DNA of 64,000 nucleotides from a virus (taxonomy: Duplodnaviria > Caudoviricetes): IMG/VR virus record IMGVR_UViG_3300031519_000018, positions 7,511-71,510 of that record; one strand, given 5' to 3'. Shown piece by piece: positions 6,301-64,000 of this stretch. The notes under the pieces were generated by a model. It was not told where the DNA came from, ran no database searches, and worked only from the letters and a program-made list of their open reading frames with translations. The translations under genes and the position numbers were made by a program. Position 1 is the first letter of the stretch. Every line of letters starts with the position of its first letter.

Positions 6301-9300
6301 AACCGTTAGACCTCTAAAGTCACCTAGTTTAGAAGTAGTACCTAATGCGTCATCTTGAATAGCTGAAAACAACTCTGCGCCAAGCGTTTGATTGTAGCTA
6401 GAGAGTATTTTATCCATTTCTAGCTCAGCAAAAGTATTTATAGCGTGTAGTTGTTTAGGTTTATTAGCTAAACCCATTCTGTGTATTGTAGCTGCTGTTT
6501 TTAAAGCTACTTTAGCTAAGTCCAACATAACGTTAGCAGCAGGGTCTACGTGCTCTCCTTTAAACTTTAAGTGTTTCTCTGGTGGGTGTTTTTCTAATCT
6601 TTGGTTTATAAACTCATCTAAAGTATTTTCTCTCTTAAACTTAGCTGTTTGCTTTTCATACATCTTAGTAGATCTATCTATAGCAAACTCTCTAGCTTGA
6701 GCGTAAAATATATGATTTTCATCAGCCTCCATAGAACCATCTACATATTGTATTAACGGTAATCTAGTTAAACCTCTTTGAGCTTTTACATTACTTGTTG
6801 ATGATTCTAACCATCTCATAAAACCAGGAGCTAATGAAGGGTTCTTGGCTATAAGCTCAGTAGCTTTGTTCATTATATATTTTAAAGCTTCTATGTTTGC
6901 TACTTCAGCTTTAGCTATAATGTCACCAAATTTATCTTCAATCTCAGCTTGTTTTTCTGCTGCTGTTTTATTTTTCTTTAATATAGTAGTTATCTGCTTC
7001 ATTACACCACTAGCAGAGTTGAATATTCTTATATCAGAAGGGTTAAAAGATAGTTGTGTATCAGAATCTTGATCTCCTTTTGCTTTTCTTTTTTTAGCTA
7101 GATCATAATACTTTCCTGGTTTTCCATCAGCCTTCTTCTTAGCGCCATCTAAATAACTATATGTTATACTAAACATGTCATCACCTACAGCGTCCACTAA
7201 CTCTGGAGGTAATATGTCTATTAAAGCACTTGAGAACTTAGCTAACTGCTCCATTGAAGCCTCTTGATTTTTGTTAGTTATAGATTTTTTATAAGTTTCA
7301 ACTGCAGGGCCAAATAACACAGGCATGTCTTTCCACTCTATCAAAGGTTTTTTAAATCCAGTTTTACCTTCATCAAAATAAGTACCTAAACCAATTTCAT
7401 CAGCATAAGCTTGTATGTCATTAGGTTGCTCTGACTTGTACATTAAATAAGCATCTGAACTACCACCATTTACTATAGCTTGATCCATCATGTTTAATAA
7501 AGCCTCTTGAACAACTGCTGCTGATTTGTTTGACTTAGAATTACCTCTTTCTATATCTCTACCTATATCTAATATATCTATAGATGCTGAGGCAACGTTT
7601 ACTATTTCTTGGTTTTTGTTTAACTCACTAAAAACCTCGTTGTCATTAGCTATCATTTCTAAACCAGTCTCTTCTGCCATAGCTTTAGCTAAAGATTCTT
7701 TTCTACCTCTTGTTAAAGATTTCAATGAAAGATTACCATCTGGACCAACAACCTCACCAAAGTAAGATAAAAACTGTTTGTCTGATATATTAATGTTTCT
7801 TTTAACCATCTCTAAACCAGATGTTCTACCTGTTTCAGCGCTAGACTCAAAATCAATCTTTCTACCTTGCCACTCAGTTGTCCACTTACCATCTACTTTC
7901 TTTTGAACAGCTATAGGTATTGCAGTGCCCAACCAAGTGGTAGTCATATTTTCTAATATAGTTTTTTTGTTCTTTAATAAGTAGTTAGAAAACTTGTTGT
8001 TTTTTAAACCACCCATTAACTCTTTAAATACTATATCATTTTGATTACCTATTTCTTTTTTAAACTCTCTAACCCAAGGCGCTATTGTAACGTTTTTAGA
8101 AGTTTGTTTAAATACAGAGGTTTTTAAAACTCTAACAACTTTTATTACAGTTTCTTTTAGTTTCTTTACAGCAAAACTAGGTACAGCGTTTGTTTTTATT
8201 ATGTTAGTATACTTACCTTTTTTAATAGTAGGTGATTTACCACTTTTTTCACTAAATCCATCAACTTCTTTACCTAAGTTATAGCTTTCAACTATACCTT
8301 GTATCTTATTATCTAGTTGACCATTTATCCACCTGTTAAGCTCTATAGATCCACTGTATCTTTCTACAATACCAACAATACCTTGAACTTTTACTTCTCT
8401 TCCGCTTTTACCCGTCTTAGTCGTTCCATATGTTATGTCAGCCAATATACTTTCCTCAACAGCTTTAAAGCCAGGTATTTTACTAAACTTTCTTAGTCTT
8501 CTTTTTACTTCATTAGTGTACTCGTAACCCACGAGTTGACCTAGTCTAGTTTTTTGAGATTCAGACATATCACTCATGTGATCAATTCTTTGATCTTCAC
8601 TCATAGATTCATCTAGACCCATTATCATTTCAGTAGTGCTATATAAATCTTTAGAACTCTTAGTGTTTTCACTAGTTCCAGTTGGCCCAAACAATCTACC
8701 TATTTTATCTGTAAGAGATATAGGATCATATTTGTTATGGTTTTTTACTATGTCAAGTATTTTAGCTTGAAAACCTCTAACTTCACCAACTAACGCTTTG
8801 TTACCATAAAGACTTTTATTGCTTCCAAATATTGCTTGTTTAATGTAAGGCGTGTAAAAGTTTACAATAGCGCTACCATAGCCTTTAGCTTTTGTATTAA
8901 AAGTTTGGTTAACGTTTCTTTCCAAAGCTGTTTGAGCGCCTAGACCATTAACTAAACTACCTTTAGCACCTTTTTTAGCTACGTTTAATATAGACCCTCT
9001 AATGCCTTTGCCACTAGCCATAGATTTATTATAATCTTTTAAGAAATTATAAACATCTTGACCGGTGTTAAACTCTATGCCTTTTATACCTAAGTTTTGA
9101 AAGGTTTGTCTTAACGTGTCTTTTAGTTTAGTAAATAAGTTTTCTTCAAAACCTATAAAACCTTGAGCCATACCGTCTGAAAAGAAAGTAAGTAATTCCT
9201 CTGCTTGAACATCTGCTGAGTTGTTCTTGTAAGCTTGTAGCTTTGCAGATAAGTAGGAACTAGGGTCGTAACCTCTAGCTATCATGTTATCAACTTGATC

Positions 9301-44404: not shown

Positions 44405-44845
44405 TTATCTGTTTTTATCCTTAATCATATCATCAATAGCCTTATTGTAGACCTTGTCTGTATATGTCTTATTGTTATAAAACTTGCTTCGCTCGCTGGT
44501 AGGTAAATCCTCCTCGGCGAGCAATATTCTGTAAATTCTTGAGATTAGCTGTCTACATCTGAAAGAAGTCTTGTAAACGCTGTATTTAATTGAAGTGCGG
44601 TTTCGGTGACGCCAAACATCGATCCAACCATCTTTACGAAGTCGTTCCCAACGGGCTTTGTCCCAGGAGTATGTATATACACCTTCTATAAAATCATTAC
44701 GTGTAAAATGAGTTTTGCAATCTAAATAGATGAGTAATTCTAAATCTGCATCTTTTATATTATAAGTTTTACAGGCCCATTTTCTAACAAGCCTGTAATA
44801 CTTAAATAAATTTATTTCACGTAGATCAGAAGCGCTTAGTCTCAT
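44405..44845 (-). CDS. Hypothetical protein, possible winged-helix DNA-binding
   Basis: ELLIYL...FTRNDF...RLRKDGWI pattern. Confidence 0.5.
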   Translation of the reverse strand: MRLSASDLREINLFKYYRLVRKWACKTYNIKDADLELLIYLDCKTHFTRNDFIEGVYTYSWDKARWERLRKDGWIDVWRHRNRTSIKYSVYKTSFRCRQLISRIYRILLAEEDLPTSERSKFYNNKTYTDKVYNKAIDDMIKDKNR

Positions 44846-45099
44846 TCGACTAAAACAACGTCCCCTAAGTTAATAACTGTGTATACTTTCTCTTTGTAAG
44901 AAATACCGTGACCTGCGTGTTTGTCGTAGAATATGACATCATCTTTTACAACACCCTGTACCTTGTCACCAACTGTTATTACTTTAGCTTTTTTGTATCT
45001 AACTTCTGTATCTGTTCTTTCTGCGATAATAAGACCACCAACCTCTCTTGGTTCTTCTTTTATCTTTTCTATTACTATATAGTAGTTTATTGCTTTCAT
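44842..45099 (-). CDS. groES: Co-chaperonin GroES (start re-called at MKAINYY)
   Basis: GGLII, KAKVITVG, VVKDDVIFYDKHAG, YTVINLGDVVLV; overlaps groEL stop. Confidence 0.8.
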   Translation of the reverse strand: MKAINYYIVIEKIKEEPREVGGLIIAERTDTEVRYKKAKVITVGDKVQGVVKDDVIFYDKHAGHGISYKEKVYTVINLGDVVLVE

Positions 45100-46667
45100 T
45101 ATTCTCTTACGTTTGATATTACACAATCCGCAGACATAATAGTTTTAGCAACACTCACTGCATATTTAAGTGCTGACTTAGTTACAAGAAGAGGATCAAC
45201 AATACCTTCTGTTACCATATGCTTAGTACAACCACATGTAACATCTATACCTTCTCCTTCTTCCCAACCTGATGCCCAAGCAACTCTCTCCATCATATTA
45301 GCATTTTCTAATACTTTTTCAAAAGGAGCTTGTATTGCGCTTAGTAATATTAACTCTCCAGCTCCACCGTGGTTTTCAACCATACTTGCAGCGTTTAATA
45401 AAGCAATACCACCGCCTGGTACAATACCTTCCTCGATAGCAGCTTTAGTAGCATACAAAGCATCTTCCACTCTATCCATTTTTTCCTTGCGCTCTACTTG
45501 AGAGTAAGCACCTACTTTGATTATACCAACTAAACCTGACAACATAGCTAGTCTTTTTTGATGAAGACCTTTCCAATACTTATCTTTAGTTTCTTTGATT
45601 TTCTTTTCTACAGTTTTAATCCTATCTTTTAATAGTTTAGGATCTTTGTCTACAGTAAGTATTGTAGATCTTTTATCTGTAACAGCTTTCTTAGCTCTAC
45701 CTAAAACATCTGGACTAATCATGTCCATATCATCTCCAAGCTCTTCACTTATGACCTTAGCACCTGTTAATAGCGCTATATCTTCTAGTGTATCTCTTTT
45801 AGATGGCCCAAATCCTGGTAGATCTATAATATTAACCTTTATATTGCCTTTAACCTTGTTCATTAACAAAGTAGCAAACGGTTGTTGTTCTAATTCAGCT
45901 ATAATAAGCAGTGATTTGCCACCTTTTATTATATATTCCAATATTGTCTGTATTTTGCGTACATTTTCCACAGGAGAATCTACGATTAACACGTATGGCT
46001 CTTCTAATACCGACTTATGGTTGTCTTTATCTGTTAATAGATGAGGAGATTTTATTTTACAGCCGTGAAGCTCAACCCCATCAACAATTTCGATGTGTGT
46101 TTGCTCATCTTCCGAGCCTTCCATCAAAACTACGCCGTTTTTACCTACTTTTTCGTAAGCCTCAGCGATTAAGTTACCTAGTGTTTCGTCGTTATTACAA
46201 GAAATCTTAGCTACATGCTTAATTAGCTTGTCGTCTGCGGGAATTTTTATTTTTTCTAGGTACTCTAGTACTTTTTCTAAAGAATAATCTATACCTTTTT
46301 TAATATTTCTTAAACTTTCCCAACCATCATACTCATGATAGTTAGTTAAAATAGAATGAGCAAGGACGGTAGCTGTTGTAGTGCCGTCACCTGCTTCTTC
46401 TACTGTTTTGGAGGCAGCTTCTTTAACCAAAGTTGCACCAATGTTCTCGACCGGGTCCATTAAGACTACGCTTTCCGCAACGGTTACACCATCTTTTGTT
46501 ATCACCGGTCGACCCATGGTATCTTCATAGATCACACATTTTCCAGATGCACCAAGAGTTGAGCCTACGGCTCTTGCTAACTTGTCTACACCCTTCATTA
46601 TTTTGGATTTAGCCTTCTTATTGAAAGTTAACTCCTTTACTATATCACTAGCATTGTTATAATTCAT
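45099..46667 (-). CDS. groEL: Chaperonin GroEL
   Basis: [33 protein letters not shown] motifs. Confidence 0.95.
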
Positions 46668-55151: not shown

Positions 55152-55319
55152 ATGAATAAAATAGAACCAACTAAAATTACTTTAAAATATTATAATAAAA
55201 AAATATCCACTGAAGTAGACCATTCAGATGTAACTTTAGAAGAGCTACATGATATGTGGTTAGAAATAGTAAGAGCAATGGGATATCACGAAAACACTAT
55301 AAAAGAATTTTACGAATAA
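55152..55319 (+). CDS. Small hypothetical protein (55 aa)
   Basis: Hand translation MNKIEPTKITLKY...; coupled to next gene. Confidence 0.55.
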   Translation: MNKIEPTKITLKYYNKKISTEVDHSDVTLEELHDMWLEIVRAMGYHENTIKEFYE

Positions 55320-55837
55320 TGAACATATTTTATTTAGACTCTGACCCTGTGAAGGCTGCGCAGGCACAATACAATAAGCATGTGGTTAAAATGATCTTAG
55401 AATCAGCCCAAATGCTTTGTACCGCGCATCATCATTATGATAACGGACACAACGTGCCTTACAAAAAAGCTCATTACAATCACCCATCAACTATATGGTG
55501 TAGACAAAACAGTAGACAGTACTATTGGTTGTTTCATCATATGTTAGCTTTAGGTGATGAGTATACTAAACGTTATAACAAAACACATTTAAGTATAACT
55601 AAATGCTTTGACGTGTTAAAAGATTGTCCTGTAGGTATGCCACTAGGTGGTGAGTTTAACGAACCTCCACAGTGTATGCCAGAGCAGTACAAGGTACCAG
55701 GTTGTAGTGTTACAGCTTATTGGAATTACTACGAGCGTGAGAAACACACTGTAGCTAACAAAAACGAAGAATTAAAATTTAGACCAGATGAATATATTAA
55801 CATACATTTTAGTAACAGCAACTATATACCATGCTGA
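55319..55837 (+). CDS. Pyrimidine-dimer DNA glycosylase (DenV/endonuclease V-like); start re-called at MNIFYLD
   Basis: MNIF.LD.DP...A....KHVVKMILESAQML, HYNHPST.W motifs. Confidence 0.75.
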   Translation: MNIFYLDSDPVKAAQAQYNKHVVKMILESAQMLCTAHHHYDNGHNVPYKKAHYNHPSTIWCRQNSRQYYWLFHHMLALGDEYTKRYNKTHLSITKCFDVLKDCPVGMPLGGEFNEPPQCMPEQYKVPGCSVTAYWNYYEREKHTVANKNEELKFRPDEYINIHFSNSNYIPC

Positions 55838-59470: not shown

Positions 59471-61195
59471 ATGCAGACAACAGAGATCAATGGATTTTTG
59501 ATTGATGAATTCAATCAACATAAGCTTGAAGAAGGTAAGAAACAGGGGATTTGTCCCCTGTGCTCTTCTGATAGAAAACCTAAGAATACTAAAGCAAAGT
59601 GTGCTTCGTATGATTGGGAACGTGGTCTTGGTACTTGTCACAATTGTAATACATCATTTCAATTACATACGTATCAACGTAAAGGAGCTAGTGAAAAAGT
59701 ATATGTAAGACCAGTTGGTCCACCAAGCGATACTGAATATCCTGAATTTGTTAGCGATAAAGTAATTGAATGGTTTAAAACAAGAGGTATAGGAACTCAG
59801 ACTCTTACTGACCTAGAGGTTGGTGAGGGTCCTGAGTGGATGCCTCAGACCGGTAAAACCGAGAACGTTATAAAGTTTAATTACTTCATGGGCGATCAAC
59901 TTATTAATATTAAGTATCGTGATGGACGAAAAAACTTTAAATTATATAAGGGTGCTGAAAAAGTATTCTATAATATAAACAGTATAGTTGGTTATGAGTA
60001 TTGTGTCATAACAGAAGGTGAAATGGATGTGTTAGCTTTACACGAAGCTGGTATACCAAATGTTGTATCAGTTCCTAATGGAGCTACATTAAATTCTAAC
60101 AACCTTGATTATCTTGATAATTGTATAGATTATTTTGAAGATAAAGAAAAAGTAATATTAGCAGTTGATTCAGATGAAGCAGGTCAAGCATTACAATCAG
60201 AATTAGTCCGTAGGCTTGGAGCTGAAGTTTGTTACCTAGCGTCGTTTGATGATTGTAAAGATGCTAATGAATATTTACAAAAGTATGGAAAAGAAAAATT
60301 ATCAGAGCGTATTTCAGGAGCAAGACCAGTACCGCTTGAGAATGTTACAACGTTCAGGGATATTGAAGATGAAGTCACGGACTTTGTTCGCAATGGCTTT
60401 AAAAAAGGATTTCAAGTTGGGTTGTCTAATTTTGATGAAATCTTTTCAACATACACTGGTCAATTCATTACTGTTACTGGTATTCCTAGTTCCGGTAAAA
60501 GCGATTTCGTCGATCAAATGGTTGTCGGATATAATCGTAACTACGGATGGAAAACAGCGTTTGCTTCGCCAGAAAATCAACCAACTTATCTTCACGCTCA
60601 TAAATTAATGCGTAAAACCTGGGAAGGTATGCCAAGAGCTGAGGATATACACGGAGACAAATGGAATCAAGTAGCAGATCATTGTAATAGTAACTATTTT
60701 CATATTGATATGGAGCGTTATACTCTTGAGTCAGTACTTAGAAAAGGTGCTGAGCTAGTTAAACGTAAAGGTATTAAATGTCTAGTCATAGATCCTTTTA
60801 ACAAGGTTAGAGACGTAGACTGTAAGACCGAAGACGTTAACAGGTATACAATGGAGTATCTAACAAAGATTGAAGTCTTTGCTAAAAAGTTTGATGTGTT
60901 AGTATTTGTGGTTGCTCACCCAACTAAAATGTATAAAGACAAAGATGGTAAAATGGAAGAACCAACTATGTATAATATTAAAGGTGGTGGTGAATGGTAT
61001 GATGCTAGTTATCACGGTATACTAGTTCATAGAGATTATGAAGCTAAAACAGTTAAGGCTAAAGTCTTAAAAGTTAAGTTCCAAAATCTTGGTGAGAATG
61101 GCGCTGAAGCTCATTTTAAATGGGAACCAAAGTCAGGTTGTTTTATACCTCACGAGCCTATAGCTATAAACAACGAGGCAATGCCTTGGGAATAG
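59471..61195 (+). CDS. Primase-helicase (T7 gp4/Twinkle-like)
   Basis: Zn finger CPLC...CHNC, TOPRIM TEGEMD / DSD, Walker A TGIPSSGKS, VIDP, VAHP. Confidence 0.92.
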   Translation: MQTTEINGFLIDEFNQHKLEEGKKQGICPLCSSDRKPKNTKAKCASYDWERGLGTCHNCNTSFQLHTYQRKGASEKVYVRPVGPPSDTEYPEFVSDKVIEWFKTRGIGTQTLTDLEVGEGPEWMPQTGKTENVIKFNYFMGDQLINIKYRDGRKNFKLYKGAEKVFYNINSIVGYEYCVITEGEMDVLALHEAGIPNVVSVPNGATLNSNNLDYLDNCIDYFEDKEKVILAVDSDEAGQALQSELVRRLGAEVCYLASFDDCKDANEYLQKYGKEKLSERISGARPVPLENVTTFRDIEDEVTDFVRNGFKKGFQVGLSNFDEIFSTYTGQFITVTGIPSSGKSDFVDQMVVGYNRNYGWKTAFASPENQPTYLHAHKLMRKTWEGMPRAEDIHGDKWNQVADHCNSNYFHIDMERYTLESVLRKGAELVKRKGIKCLVIDPFNKVRDVDCKTEDVNRYTMEYLTKIEVFAKKFDVLVFVVAHPTKMYKDKDGKMEEPTMYNIKGGGEWYDASYHGILVHRDYEAKTVKAKVLKVKFQNLGENGAEAHFKWEPKSGCFIPHEPIAINNEAMPWE

Positions 61196-61441
61196 ATGGC
61201 TTCAAAAAGTAAGATAAACATGGGTAAATATATGCCTACACAGAAGGACTTTGACGCGATGCAATGGTGTATAGCAAACAATATTAAAATATCACCAATG
61301 GCAAAAAGTACTTATGAGTGGTATATAGATATAGAAATAAACAATAAAAAAAATAGATCTCCCTACGTATATGTTAAAGACCAAATATGGCAAGAGATCT
61401 GGAAGTTTTATAAATACTATTACAAGAAATATGAGAAGTAA
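61196..61441 (+). CDS. Hypothetical protein
   Basis: ORF track. Confidence 0.6.
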   Translation: MASKSKINMGKYMPTQKDFDAMQWCIANNIKISPMAKSTYEWYIDIEINNKKNRSPYVYVKDQIWQEIWKFYKYYYKKYEK

Positions 61442-62072
61442 ATTTATAACAGCAAACGAAGCGTTTAATTGTATATTGCACGAACTAAGAGTTGAAGGTG
61501 TGGATTTTGATAACACTAAAGCTCTGTTTAATGTAGGCTTTACAATTGAAGATCCGCTAGACAATCATATTAAAAACAAATATAGAAAATGGAGTCATGA
61601 ATATGCTGAAGCTGAATGGCAGTGGTATTTATCAGGTGATCGTAACATAAAAAAGCTAGGAGAACTATATGGTAAGATACCGCCAATATGGGAAAAGATG
61701 GCCGATAGTAATGGAGACGTAAATAGTAACTACGGATATCAATGGCAGCGTAATAATCAAATTGATTACGTGATAGGCAAACTAAAAGATAACCCAAATA
61801 CTAGACACGCAGCTATAAGTATATACGATGCTAAAGAATTTGATAAGTACGCTAAGGATACTCCTTGTACTTACGCGGTTCAGTTTACAATTCTAAACAA
61901 TAAGCTTTGTATGTCTGTCTATATGCGTTCTAATGACATCTGGTACGGTTTCTGTAATGATCAGTATCAATTTTCATCATTACAAAAAATGATTGCAGAC
62001 AGACTGTCTATTGACGTCGGTTGGTATTACCATCACGCACACAACATGCATTTGTATAACGATAAACTTTAA
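61431..62072 (+). CDS. Thymidylate-synthase-superfamily enzyme, dCMP hydroxymethylase-like (start re-called at MRSKF)
   Basis: Catalytic PCT; MRSNDIWYGFCND with Asp at the Asn177 specificity position; INSNYG-like VNSNYG; HNMHLY. Confidence 0.75.
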   Translation: MRSKFITANEAFNCILHELRVEGVDFDNTKALFNVGFTIEDPLDNHIKNKYRKWSHEYAEAEWQWYLSGDRNIKKLGELYGKIPPIWEKMADSNGDVNSNYGYQWQRNNQIDYVIGKLKDNPNTRHAAISIYDAKEFDKYAKDTPCTYAVQFTILNNKLCMSVYMRSNDIWYGFCNDQYQFSSLQKMIADRLSIDVGWYYHHAHNMHLYNDKL

Positions 62073-62075
62073 AAT

Positions 62076-62852
62076 ATGTACTATTTATACCACATACCAG
62101 GTAAAAAAATCGGAGTAACACGTAATCTTAATAACAGAGTTACCCTTATACAAGGTTATAAGGAGGGAGAGTATGAGGTTCTTGAACAGTCAGACGATAT
62201 AGATTATATATCAGACCGTGAAATAGAACTTCAAAAGTCTTATGGCTATAAGGTTGATTTAAAAAAATATAAAAATCTAAAATTTAATAAAATGAAAATA
62301 AATGCAACAGAGCAAACATCAACATTTGACTGCCCAGTAAATAAATTAAAAGGCCGGCTAATGGACAACGTAGGTATGACATGGGAAACAACTCATGGTA
62401 AATTTGAGATATCAAACGACTATATACCTTGGATAATGGCAAATGTAAAAACATCTATGTTTAATGAAGGTAGATCTTACATTTATAACAAAGCTTTTTA
62501 TGAAGCATTTTTTAATCCTAAAGATAGTCCTGACAAATGTGTCAAATATAATTTAGATTGTGAGAGATTTGATCTTATAAGAGACTGGGCGGCTACTAGA
62601 GGTATATACGACAAAGGTAATACTCATACACAATACGTTAAGCTTATGGAGGAGGCTGGTGAACTAGCTGAGGCTCTATTAAAAGAAGATGACCACGAAA
62701 TATGGGATGCTATTGGCGATATGGTTGTAGTGCTTACTAATCTAGCTCATCAGACAGGTATGGACATAGAACAATGTATTGACAATGCTTACGGTGAGAT
62801 AAGTCAGAGAACAGGTAAAATGGTTAATGGAACATTTGTAAAAGATAAATAA
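62076..62852 (+). CDS. Fusion of GIY-YIG-like N-terminus and MazG-like NTP pyrophosphatase
   Basis: YYLYHIP.KKIGVT; KLMEEAGEL...DAIGD. Confidence 0.7.
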   Translation: MYYLYHIPGKKIGVTRNLNNRVTLIQGYKEGEYEVLEQSDDIDYISDREIELQKSYGYKVDLKKYKNLKFNKMKINATEQTSTFDCPVNKLKGRLMDNVGMTWETTHGKFEISNDYIPWIMANVKTSMFNEGRSYIYNKAFYEAFFNPKDSPDKCVKYNLDCERFDLIRDWAATRGIYDKGNTHTQYVKLMEEAGELAEALLKEDDHEIWDAIGDMVVVLTNLAHQTGMDIEQCIDNAYGEISQRTGKMVNGTFVKDK

Positions 62853-63115
62853 TGAAAATAAAAACAGAAGATAAAATAGTTCAACAAGTCTTAAGAAAGA
62901 TGGACGAACGTAGCTTAATAGGTCAGAAAAAGTACGGAGCAACTATGATGGAAGAGATTGAAGGTGAAGAAAAAGATCTTGATCGTTTCTTAGTTGATGT
63001 ACAAGAAGAACTAATGGATGCTTTGTTATACATAGAAGCAGCAAGACGCTGTTTAACCGACGAGGTTGAAGAGGTTATGTTTAATAGAGCAGAAGCTTAT
63101 GAAAAAAACATTTAA
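62852..63115 (+). CDS. All-alpha NTP pyrophosphatase-like protein
   Basis: RSLIGQKKYG...QEELMDALLY. Confidence 0.6.
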   Translation: MKIKTEDKIVQQVLRKMDERSLIGQKKYGATMMEEIEGEEKDLDRFLVDVQEELMDALLYIEAARRCLTDEVEEVMFNRAEAYEKNI

Positions 63116-63551
63116 AAGAAAAAAAGGTCCTGTACAGTCGAAGAAGATATCATATGATGGTATCAACTTCGCCTCTGGGCTTGAGCGTTATATGTATATG
63201 GCTTTGAGAAAAGCTAAAATAACGTCTTTATATGAAGGTCAAACTTTTGAATTGTCAGAAGCTTTTGAATTTCCTTTTGAATCATACGAAAGATGTGGTA
63301 ACGGTAAAGGAGAATACAAAAACAGAGGCAATAAAAAAATACTTAATATAAAATATACACCAGACTTTGTAGGTAAGGGTTTTATAATCGAAACTAAAGG
63401 TAGAGCTAACGAATCGTTTCCACTTAGATGGAAGCTATTTAAAAAGCTTATAACCGAAAGAAGGTTAGGACCACTTACGTTGTATAAACCTCAAAATCAT
63501 AAAGAATGCGACGAGACAGTAAGATTGATCCTAGCCAAGCTAAAAGAATAG
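63099..63551 (+). CDS. Endonuclease I-like Holliday junction resolvase (start re-called at MKKTF)
   Basis: FASGLE, YTPDF, IIETKG. Confidence 0.75.
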   Translation: MKKTFKRKKGPVQSKKISYDGINFASGLERYMYMALRKAKITSLYEGQTFELSEAFEFPFESYERCGNGKGEYKNRGNKKILNIKYTPDFVGKGFIIETKGRANESFPLRWKLFKKLITERRLGPLTLYKPQNHKECDETVRLILAKLKE

Positions 63552-63663
63552 CTAGACAAAAATACGGAGAAAGGCAGTTTGATAAATGGTGGAAATGGAA
63601 ATGGGAACAGTTTGGAAGAATAAGGTATAATGATTTAATTAAACAATGCAAAGAATATAAAAT

Positions 63664-63807
63664 ATGAAAGAAAAAAGAAACTGGAGTTTAAGTCTAGGAA
63701 CTTACCCAGGTATTTTAATAGGAGCTAGAACTTACGACGAAGACACTCAAGTCACTCATGTGCTATACATACCTTTCGTAGACATAGCCTTAGAGATTTT
63801 TAAATAA
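63664..63807 (+). CDS. Small hypothetical protein (47 aa)
   Basis: Hand translation MKEKRNWSLSLGTYPG...; coupled to nrdB. Confidence 0.6.
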   Translation: MKEKRNWSLSLGTYPGILIGARTYDEDTQVTHVLYIPFVDIALEIFK

Positions 63808-64000
63808 TGGGATTATTTGATGAGCGCATAGCGTACAAACCATTTGAATATCCTGAGTACTATACAGAAGGTTGGTTAAAACAAGCTCAAGCATTTTGGT
63901 TACACACTGAAATCTCAATGCAGAGCGATATAAAAGATTGGAATGAAAAACTTACAGAAAAAGAAAAGCACCTCGTTGGGAACATACTTCTTGGATTCGC
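63807..64000 (+). CDS. nrdB: Ribonucleotide reductase beta subunit, N-terminal part (runs off window)
   Basis: YKPFEYP, QAFWLHTEI.M..D..DW motifs. Confidence 0.9.
   Translation, partial: MGLFDERIAYKPFEYPEYYTEGWLKQAQAFWLHTEISMQSDIKDWNEKLTEKEKHLVGNILLGF

Follow-up and report, generated by a model that had tools for sequence, protein, structure and literature searches.

The deoxycytidine monophosphate (dCMP) hydroxymethylase of phage T4, gp42 (dCH; PDB 1B5E, 6A9A/6A9B), has the thymidylate synthase (TS) fold and lacks the TS C-terminal tail. In its ternary complex Asp145, three residues upstream of Cys148, activates the substrate water in partnership with a Ser/Thr two residues before the catalytic Tyr (Ser94 in T4), the D145N variant is inactive, and Asp179 confers cytosine specificity (PMC6400193). 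In related TS-fold enzymes, an acidic residue in place of Leu143 (L143D/E) indicates products other than methyl ones, N177D indicates dCMP as substrate, and flavin-dependent 5-hydroxy-dCMP synthases are recognised by D169N (PMC13326640); Ser167 and Arg126' mark deoxyribose-specific enzymes, the cytidine monophosphate (CMP)-preferring MilA/BcmA having Ala and Lys at these sites (PMC5175136). The combination of an Asp177 TS homologue with a MazG-like pyrophosphatase is also an already published strategy, as MetaGPA found the Pfam domains PF00303 and PF01503 to co-occur specifically on contigs with modified cytosine, where positions 177 and 147 discriminated best (Yang et al., eLife 2021, PMC8670742). 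A comparable arrangement is known from cyanophage S-2L (PDB 7ODY), in which the gene of a MazG-fold pyrophosphatase, MazZ, stands beside that of PurZ, the enzyme using the resulting deoxynucleoside monophosphate (dNMP). Here we describe a TS-MazG gene pair in IMG/VR record IMGVR_UViG_3300031519_000018 (71,510 bp), of which the final 64,000 bases constitute the window analysed, and to which all coordinates refer unless stated otherwise. Its first gene probably encodes a dCMP 5-hydroxymethylase of the T4 gp42 type. The enzyme class and the type of gene pair are both known already, and the novelty lies in a member that is very abundant and unusually short.

The first gene of the pair (61431..62072, +) encodes a short TS-fold enzyme of 213 amino acids (aa), predicted to be a dCMP 5-hydroxymethylase from Pfam, a PDB search and signature residues. 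It matched Pfam PF00303 with 103 bits (cut-off 24.3), the match spanning only profile positions 49-214 of 266. A sequence search of the PDB returned MilA (2e-20), bacterial ThyA (3e-20) and T4 dCH (3e-19), and the three are about equally far from the 213-aa protein by sequence. Homologues are mostly 213 aa long, which supports the start at 61431. A longer TS gene split by a homing endonuclease was rejected on the family-conserved length and stop position, and other short TS-fold proteins end alike.

Numbering of the protein agrees with that of E. coli ThyA from about residue 143 onward. The catalytic Cys146 is found in DTPCT (61857..61871, +), where Asp143, at Cys-3, is equivalent to the water-activating Asp145 of T4 dCH and to Leu143 of ThyA. 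Residues 165-177, MRSNDIWYGFCND (61923..61961, +), hold the deoxyribose determinant Ser167, Asp169 and the cytosine determinant Asp177. An earlier note on this DNA, made from the letters alone, had reported Asp at the site of ThyA Asn177 and a VNSNYG echo of the INSNYG-type motif of the T4 enzyme. Both read exactly as it described them, and the aspartate that it named for T4 at this site is Asp179, the residue of cytosine specificity (PMC6400193). Within VNSNYG, the SNYG residues 99-102 (61725-61736, +) provide Ser99 and Tyr101, the counterparts of T4 S94 and Y96, and further key residues are Glu62 (ThyA E58), Arg125 (ThyA R126), Thr147, His207 and Tyr209. In a family set of 199 sequences (79 loci and 120 database proteins), DTPCT and SNYG were present in every member, whilst MRSND..YGFCND and H-[LI]-Y were each present in 198. 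The protein stops four residues past Tyr209 and so has no TS C-terminal tail, a feature shared by 185 of the 199 relatives.

The window protein was compared, together with eight members of its family, in an alignment that included as references E. coli thyA, T4 gene 42, RB69 td and gp48, the Xp12 TS homologue, SPO1 gp29 and the phiW-14 hydroxymethylase. MAFFT placed a gap beside ThyA Leu143, and this position was mapped instead by its fixed spacing from the catalytic Cys (Cys-3), as is done in PMC6400193 and PMC13326640. The window protein and T4 gp42 have in common Asp at Cys-3, Cys146, Thr147, Ser167, Asp169, Asp177, His207, Tyr209, Glu58 and Tyr94, and the Ser two residues ahead of the catalytic Tyr (SNYG) is also found in the window protein. 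Judged from this alignment, the T4 gp42 pattern is matched at every diagnostic position, although identity to T4 gp42 is ~38 % and extends over 144 residues only, and the window protein is 33 residues shorter. Taken together with the shared fold and missing tail, we consider the 213-aa protein to be probably a folate-dependent dCMP 5-hydroxymethylase. The deoxyribose determinants Ser167 and Arg125 are both present, which argues against a MilA-type CMP hydroxymethylase (MilA has Ala167 and Lys126). The deoxyuridine monophosphate (dUMP) hydroxymethylases also differ, having Asn177 where the window protein has Asp177.

A maximum-likelihood tree of 21 sequences placed the family inside a clade of non-TS enzymes (support 96/96) that excluded ThyA/td and Xp12, with gp32 of Bacteroides phage BF486P2 as its sister. 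The phylogenetic check proposed in the earlier note was thus borne out in so far as the family stands apart from ThyA/td and Xp12, but not in its other half, since dCMP hydroxymethylases, dUMP hydroxymethylases and the 5-hydroxy-dCMP (5hodCMP) synthase were not separated in this tree. Because its long branches do not sort these functional classes, the product was assigned from signature residues and not from phylogeny. This lack of separation tells against the hydroxymethylase assignment, as do two substitutions: the second phosphate-binding Arg (ThyA Arg127, T4 Arg124) is His in the window protein, and T4 Arg177, which holds the glutamate tail of folate, is replaced by Cys175.

BF486P2 gp32 is the closest cultured relative (226 aa, 45.6 % full-length identity) and carries the same signature residues. 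It is annotated as a deoxycytidylate 5-hydroxymethyltransferase, and as far as we found the DNA chemistry of that phage is an annotation only. The setting of this gene differs from that in the window: it has no MazG neighbour, and a dUTPase and another, divergent TS-fold gene lie close by. Both BF486P2 TS-fold genes (L001:5168-5929 and 8001-8681) have Asp177 and Asp at Cys-3, and they flank the dUTPase. Of the two, gp27 (the second copy) has diverged strongly and carries Leu in place of the catalytic Glu58 equivalent.

Pfam, PHROG and Joint Genome Institute (JGI) labels all say thymidylate synthase, and ribonucleotide reductase (RNR) genes are nearby, as might be expected were this an ordinary thyA. 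The earlier note had anticipated such an automatic label, and homologues are indeed called 'thymidylate synthase' by JGI and PHROGs. We nevertheless give this reading almost no credence, as Asn177 is replaced by Asp, Leu143 by Asp and His147 by Thr, the last ~50 residues with the folate-sealing tail are missing, and the NCBIfam thymidylate-synthase equivalogs all score far below cut-off (best 86 bits versus 327). A dCMP methyltransferase making 5-methyl-dCMP, with 5-methylcytosine in the DNA as in Xanthomonas phage Xp12, would account for Asp177, for this residue alone turns TS into a dCMP methylase according to Liu & Santi (1992) and Hardy & Nalivaika (1992) as these are cited in PMC8670742. 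The Xp12 TS homologue, a single reference sequence, however has Asn at Cys-3, Pro147 and a long C-terminal region that aligns with ThyA, and it branches outside the clade containing the window family. The window protein instead has Asp at Cys-3, as do all aligned hydroxymethylases (T4 gp42, SPO1 gp29 and phiW-14). This Asp is required in T4 dCH for the formation of 5-hydroxymethyl-dCMP (hm-dCMP) (PMC6400193), and the window protein has no C-terminal tail of the kind with which ThyA closes its site for hydride transfer. As far as these residues can be read, the evidence favours a hydroxymethylase over a methylase, and we regard the latter as very unlikely.

The flavin-dependent 5-hydroxy-dCMP synthases of the RB69 gp48 and DLP3 gp80 type, whose product leads to O-glycosylated 5-hydroxycytosine, are likewise short and tailless, with N177D and an acidic residue at position 143. 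Their diagnostic D169N is absent here, Asp169 being retained in 198/199 family members, and the window protein has Trp80, Gly173 and Tyr209 where RB69 gp48 has Val, Val and Phe. Scans of the early-region proteins found neither glycosyltransferase nor nucleoside diphosphate (NDP)-sugar genes. A synthase of this type is therefore exceedingly improbable, and a hydroxymethylase remains the enzyme that we predict.

The second gene of the pair encodes a 258-aa protein (62076-62852, +) that is a three-part fusion of a T5orf172/GIY-YIG-like N-terminus, a middle domain and a C-terminal MazG domain. The last of these (residues ~160-258; 62553..62849, +) was identified as a MazG-type all-alpha nucleoside triphosphate (NTP) pyrophosphohydrolase domain by profiles, fold and metal motif. 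It matched the PRA-PH profile with 30.8 bits (cut-off 21.3) and the MazG profile with 29.8 bits (cut-off 22). The acidic metal motif is intact (Glu192-Glu193-x-x-Glu196, Glu208-x-x-Asp211...Asp215), and across 39 family sequences Glu192, Glu193, Glu196, Asp211 and Asp215 are invariant and Glu208 near-invariant. In VIA superpositions of the AlphaFold2 model (predicted local distance difference test score, pLDDT, 88), the domain matched HisE, S-2L MazZ and MazG structures with Z scores of 9.6-8.7, the highest being those for HisE (9.6) and MazZ (9.5; root-mean-square deviation 2.5 A over 91 residues). Identity to MazZ is only 18 %, and the S-2L system concerns a purine where a pyrimidine is proposed here. 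Mouse and human dCTP pyrophosphatase were among the top Foldseek matches. We tentatively regard the MazG domain as possibly dCTP-preferring by analogy, with somewhat less than even confidence.

The N-terminal domain (residues 1-62; 62076..62261, +) appears to be T5orf172/MUG113-like (GIY-YIG clan) on the basis of weak profile matches and predicted topology. The latter is beta-beta-alpha-beta-alpha, with near-invariant Tyr5, Lys11-Ile-Gly13-x-Thr15, Arg21 and Glu49. Pfam matches were all below gathering threshold (PF10544 in 9/39 members, best E 0.002; PF13455 in 6/39, best E 4.6e-4), and ESM-Atlas neighbours of residues 1-150 carry T5orf172. The fold search was saturated by MazG domain matches. 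The middle alpha/beta domain (residues 73-147; 62292..62516, +) was confidently modelled, with no family assigned. At one locus (L083) the MazG domain stands alone as a 104-aa protein, which marks the N-terminal part as an add-on module.

Gene linkage was judged from 80 loci of IMG/VR that were found with the TS protein as query (71-91 % identity). The TS-like gene was followed immediately downstream by MazG at 80/80 loci and an 87-aa gene was present at 75/80. Most of the loci belong to the same phage type, and synteny alone is therefore weak evidence. Three loci (L078, L083 and L084) have a different backbone, and nothing in their fetched flanks matches the primase-helicase or 81-aa open reading frame (ORF) of the window. 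They keep the TS-MazG order, followed downstream by a 5'-3' exonuclease and DUF3310 (L078/L084) or an unassigned 139-aa ORF (L083), and the presence of the pair in this different backbone speaks for the two genes acting jointly. In a Manatee Spring siphovirus, which is unrelated, an NTP pyrophosphatase (NTP-PPase) gene lies directly upstream of a 'pyrimidine hmase'. Such pairs thus occur in the different backbone, in this siphovirus and on the MetaGPA contigs, indicating that TS-MazG pairing is recurrent, as already described. The MetaGPA contigs resemble the window in their domain pair, in the diagnostic positions 177 and 147 and in coming from uncultured environmental phages, but differ in that many carry deaminases or carbamoyltransferases, of which the window genome has none.

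A conserved gene trio was observed ahead of the same TS subfamily (71-74 % identical) and MazG in the different backbone (L078:3242-6004 and L083:809-3510), whilst L084 is cut and retains, of the trio, no more than the 3' end of the second gene and the third gene. The first gene encodes a 315-aa protein that matches the N-domain of the T4 beta-glucosyltransferase only below threshold (PF09198, E 4e-4). It is listed as unknown in PHROGs (phrog_13881) and a PDB sequence search gave no support for a beta-glucosyltransferase, making this a weak lead only. The second gene (~300 aa) has no known function and the third encodes a PLP-dependent (pyridoxal phosphate) enzyme (PF00291; phrog 'threonine dehydratase'). 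A DUF6378 protein is encoded just upstream. The trio is reminiscent of hypermodification clusters, and we consider its members candidate genes for hypermodification of 5-hydroxymethylcytosine (5hmC).

The earlier note had taken the genes after the TS-like gene to encode two adjacent all-alpha NTP-PPases. This held for residues ~160-258 of the 258-aa protein, the rest of which consists of other domains, but found no support for the 87-aa protein (62852..63115, +), a helical protein that is syntenic in this phage group and shows no detectable link to MazG. It had no match in Pfam (E<=10), NCBIfam, a PDB profile search or the ESM Atlas, and is of 'unknown function' in PHROG. Comparison with the MazG profile by hhalign gave a probability of 0.4 %, and comparison with T4 gp56 also gave nothing. 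The AlphaFold2 model consists of two long helices (pLDDT 73), for which Foldseek found no match and VIA matched a single helix only. Conserved residues are Arg20, Ser21, Gly24, Lys27-Tyr28-Gly29, Gln51-Glu52-Glu53, Asp56 and Tyr60, and the Glu-Glu-x-x-Asp motif among them is the sole resemblance to MazG. A profile search of 1.8 billion representative proteins found 2,142 relatives at E<=1e-3. Longer 'fused' relatives carry unrelated fragments (TatA, Helicase_C and AnmK), look like gene-calling chimeras and were set aside. In Flavobacterium siphophages (~38 kb) the homologue forms the C-terminal part of a 125-aa protein (L098:3797-4174, snork6-2 gp030), and within 4 kb of it neither TS nor MazG is annotated. 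Since no sequence, profile or structure method links the 87-aa protein to MazG or to any other known family, and since it occurs elsewhere without TS or MazG, a pyrophosphatase role is not supported and the gene is treated as a syntenic one.

On the model of the T4 and ThyA literature, the hydroxymethylase would act by attack of Cys146 on C6 of dCMP, with the N3/N4 face of cytosine read and protonated by Asp177. The one-carbon donor would be methylene-tetrahydrofolate, activated via Glu62. With no sealing tail, and with water held by Asp143 and Ser99, the exocyclic methylene intermediate would be hydrated rather than reduced, and the product would be hm-dCMP. The MazG domain most likely hydrolyses a deoxynucleoside triphosphate (dNTP) to dNMP and pyrophosphate. 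In an attractive version of this scheme its substrate would be dCTP, such that conversion to dCMP would draw down the competing nucleotide and at the same time supply the hydroxymethylase with substrate, much as T4 gp56 and, for PurZ, MazZ do. Host kinases might then make hm-dCTP, which could be incorporated by a host replicative polymerase loaded by the phage primase-helicase. Virion DNA would in this case carry 5hmC, probably undecorated, and be protected from restriction. We put the chance that virion DNA contains 5hmC or a derivative at about even or marginally better.

This extension from enzyme to DNA has several counterweights in the gene content. Dedicated searches of the complete genome found no family A or B DNA polymerase, dCMP deaminase or ThyX, nor was there any Walker-A protein fit to be a dNMP kinase (GK[D] variant included). 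PHROG and Pfam scans of 30 early-region proteins found no glycosyltransferase or recognisable decoration enzyme, and none of the trio genes described above has a homologue in the window's genome. The earlier note, which had seen no glycosyltransferase or dNMP kinase in the window, is upheld by these scans and by the kinase search of the complete genome. Unlike T4, the genome has no gp1-type kinase, gp56 homologue, glucosyltransferases or phage DNA polymerase, and of the kinase, dCTPase, polymerase and glucosyltransferases of a complete T4-style pathway only the MazG domain is present. No similarity between the MazG fusion and the T4 gp56 dCTPase was detected by hhalign. The nearest MazG domains of cultured phages (~50 % identity) occur in Staphylococcus phage K-like, Streptococcus thermophilus, Aeromonas and Limnohabitans phages. 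Those Staphylococcus phage K-like, Streptococcus and other phages are not known to have modified DNA. As its nearest relatives lie in phages without known cytosine modification, this MazG subfamily is not specific to that process.

The argument at the level of DNA is weakest where the kinase is concerned, since none was found. In E. coli infected with T4, phosphorylation of hm-dCMP needs the phage kinase gp1. The replication machinery of E. coli can incorporate 5-hydroxymethyldeoxycytidine (5hmdC), which plasmid DNA gains when T4 gp42 and a kinase are expressed, and traces of the related 5-hydroxydeoxycytidine (5hodC) appear even without a cognate kinase (PMC13326640). An alternative is that hm-dCMP or another C5 derivative is made but replacement in DNA is partial or absent, the product serving in pool manipulation or as a precursor and MazG in unrelated house-cleaning. 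The lack of dNMP kinase, DNA polymerase and glycosyltransferase, the spread of the MazG subfamily among phages not known to modify cytosine and the occurrence of the 87-aa neighbour apart from TS and MazG are all consistent with this. Retention of the TS-MazG pair in a different backbone speaks for joint function, however, MetaGPA ties the same domain pair to physically modified contigs (PMC8670742), and the trace incorporation seen in E. coli with related enzymes came without the cognate kinase. We therefore consider this alternative rather unlikely.

At the other extreme, the locus might constitute a minimal cytosine-replacement system that works without phage polymerase, kinase or glycosyltransferase. 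In such a system the hydroxymethylase would be joined by the T5orf172(GIY-YIG-like)-MazG fusion, coupling attack on cytosine-containing DNA or dCTP to the supply of dCMP, with the 87-aa protein as an accessory factor and host kinases and Pol III completing the pathway. We hold this to be distinctly unlikely, slightly more so than the alternative of partial or absent replacement. If true, two or three phage genes would suffice for near-complete base replacement in marine phages of global abundance. A very short enzyme with no phage kinase or polymerase is a compact test case for the minimum needed to rewrite a base.

The record has a CheckV completeness of 100 % and is classed under 'direct terminal repeats'. 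Its first 3,965 bp are identical to its last 3,965 bp, leaving a unique genome of ~67.5 kb. The terminal repeat corresponds to window positions 60036-64000 (genome 1-3965) and the whole TS-MazG cassette lies inside it, together with the 3' part of the primase-helicase gene and the 81-aa ORF before the TS-like gene and MazG fusion, and the 87-aa ORF, DUF1064 and the start of RNR beta after them. If this is a true long direct terminal repeat and not an overlap from circular assembly, the cassette would be present twice per packaged genome and would enter with whichever end is injected first. The related contigs L011 and L024 likewise stop a few hundred bp past DUF1064.

The major capsid protein is 42-45 % identical to its counterparts in Maribacter, Flavobacterium and Cellulophaga podoviruses. 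Marine metagenomes, Tara Oceans included, abound in relatives, with thousands of metagenome and Tara Oceans proteins related at 70-90 % identity. A nucleotide-level search of a phage collection found no close cultured relative. From the capsid similarity and the abundance of marine metagenome relatives, we conclude that the virus is an uncultured marine phage, probably of the host family Flavobacteriaceae. Should it carry 5hmC, the DNA of a very common group of ocean phages would be non-canonical, with consequences for restriction and CRISPR evasion in Flavobacteria-phage interactions and for library-preparation and nanopore base-calling biases in marine viromics. Such a result would also bear on the routine mislabelling of the TS-like gene as thyA. 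To the published strategy the present analysis adds a test with the 2026 5hodCMP-synthase signature, the three-domain fusion architecture, the negative result for the 87-aa protein with its occurrence apart from both TS and MazG, a warning that this MazG subfamily is widespread, the location of the cassette in a 3,965-bp terminal repeat and, from a second phage lineage, the trio of candidate decoration genes.

The early module (+) runs in the order ATP-dependent ligase, Pyr_excise-like glycosylase, sigma factor, Erf annealing protein, exonuclease, primase-helicase, 81-aa ORF, TS-like gene, 258-aa MazG fusion, 87-aa ORF, DUF1064 resolvase-like protein, RNR beta and RNR alpha, with the genes for RNR beta and then RNR alpha spanning the start of the record. 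Replication presumably uses the host polymerase, as no family A/B polymerase is encoded despite the primase-helicase, ATP-dependent ligase, Erf, exonuclease, DUF1064 and class I RNR. The 81-aa ORF (61196..61441, +) overlaps the TS start by 11 nt and is a neighbour rather than a proven part of the cassette. It is poorly conserved (34-71 % identity) and was found at 71/80 loci.

Among the remaining genes, a 193-aa protein (55256-55837, +; phrog_624) matched Pyr_excise, the pyrimidine-dimer DNA glycosylase family of T4 endonuclease V, above cut-off (E 1.6e-5). A DNA glycosylase within a phage predicted to carry modified cytosine is possibly notable. In L004 a 194-aa ORF lies between RNR beta and RNR alpha in the nucleotide-metabolism cluster (L004:5545-6129, genome coordinates, outside the window). 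Its sequence includes a nucleotidyltransferase motif of the Pol-beta type (LVGG...DIDI) and matched NTP_transf_2 weakly (E 0.007). The late region of the window (44842-46667, -) encodes, from a reading of the sequence only, a full-length GroEL-like chaperonin of 522 aa and a GroES-like protein of 94 aa, and the late region also codes for very large virion-type proteins of 3,020 and 1,890 aa.

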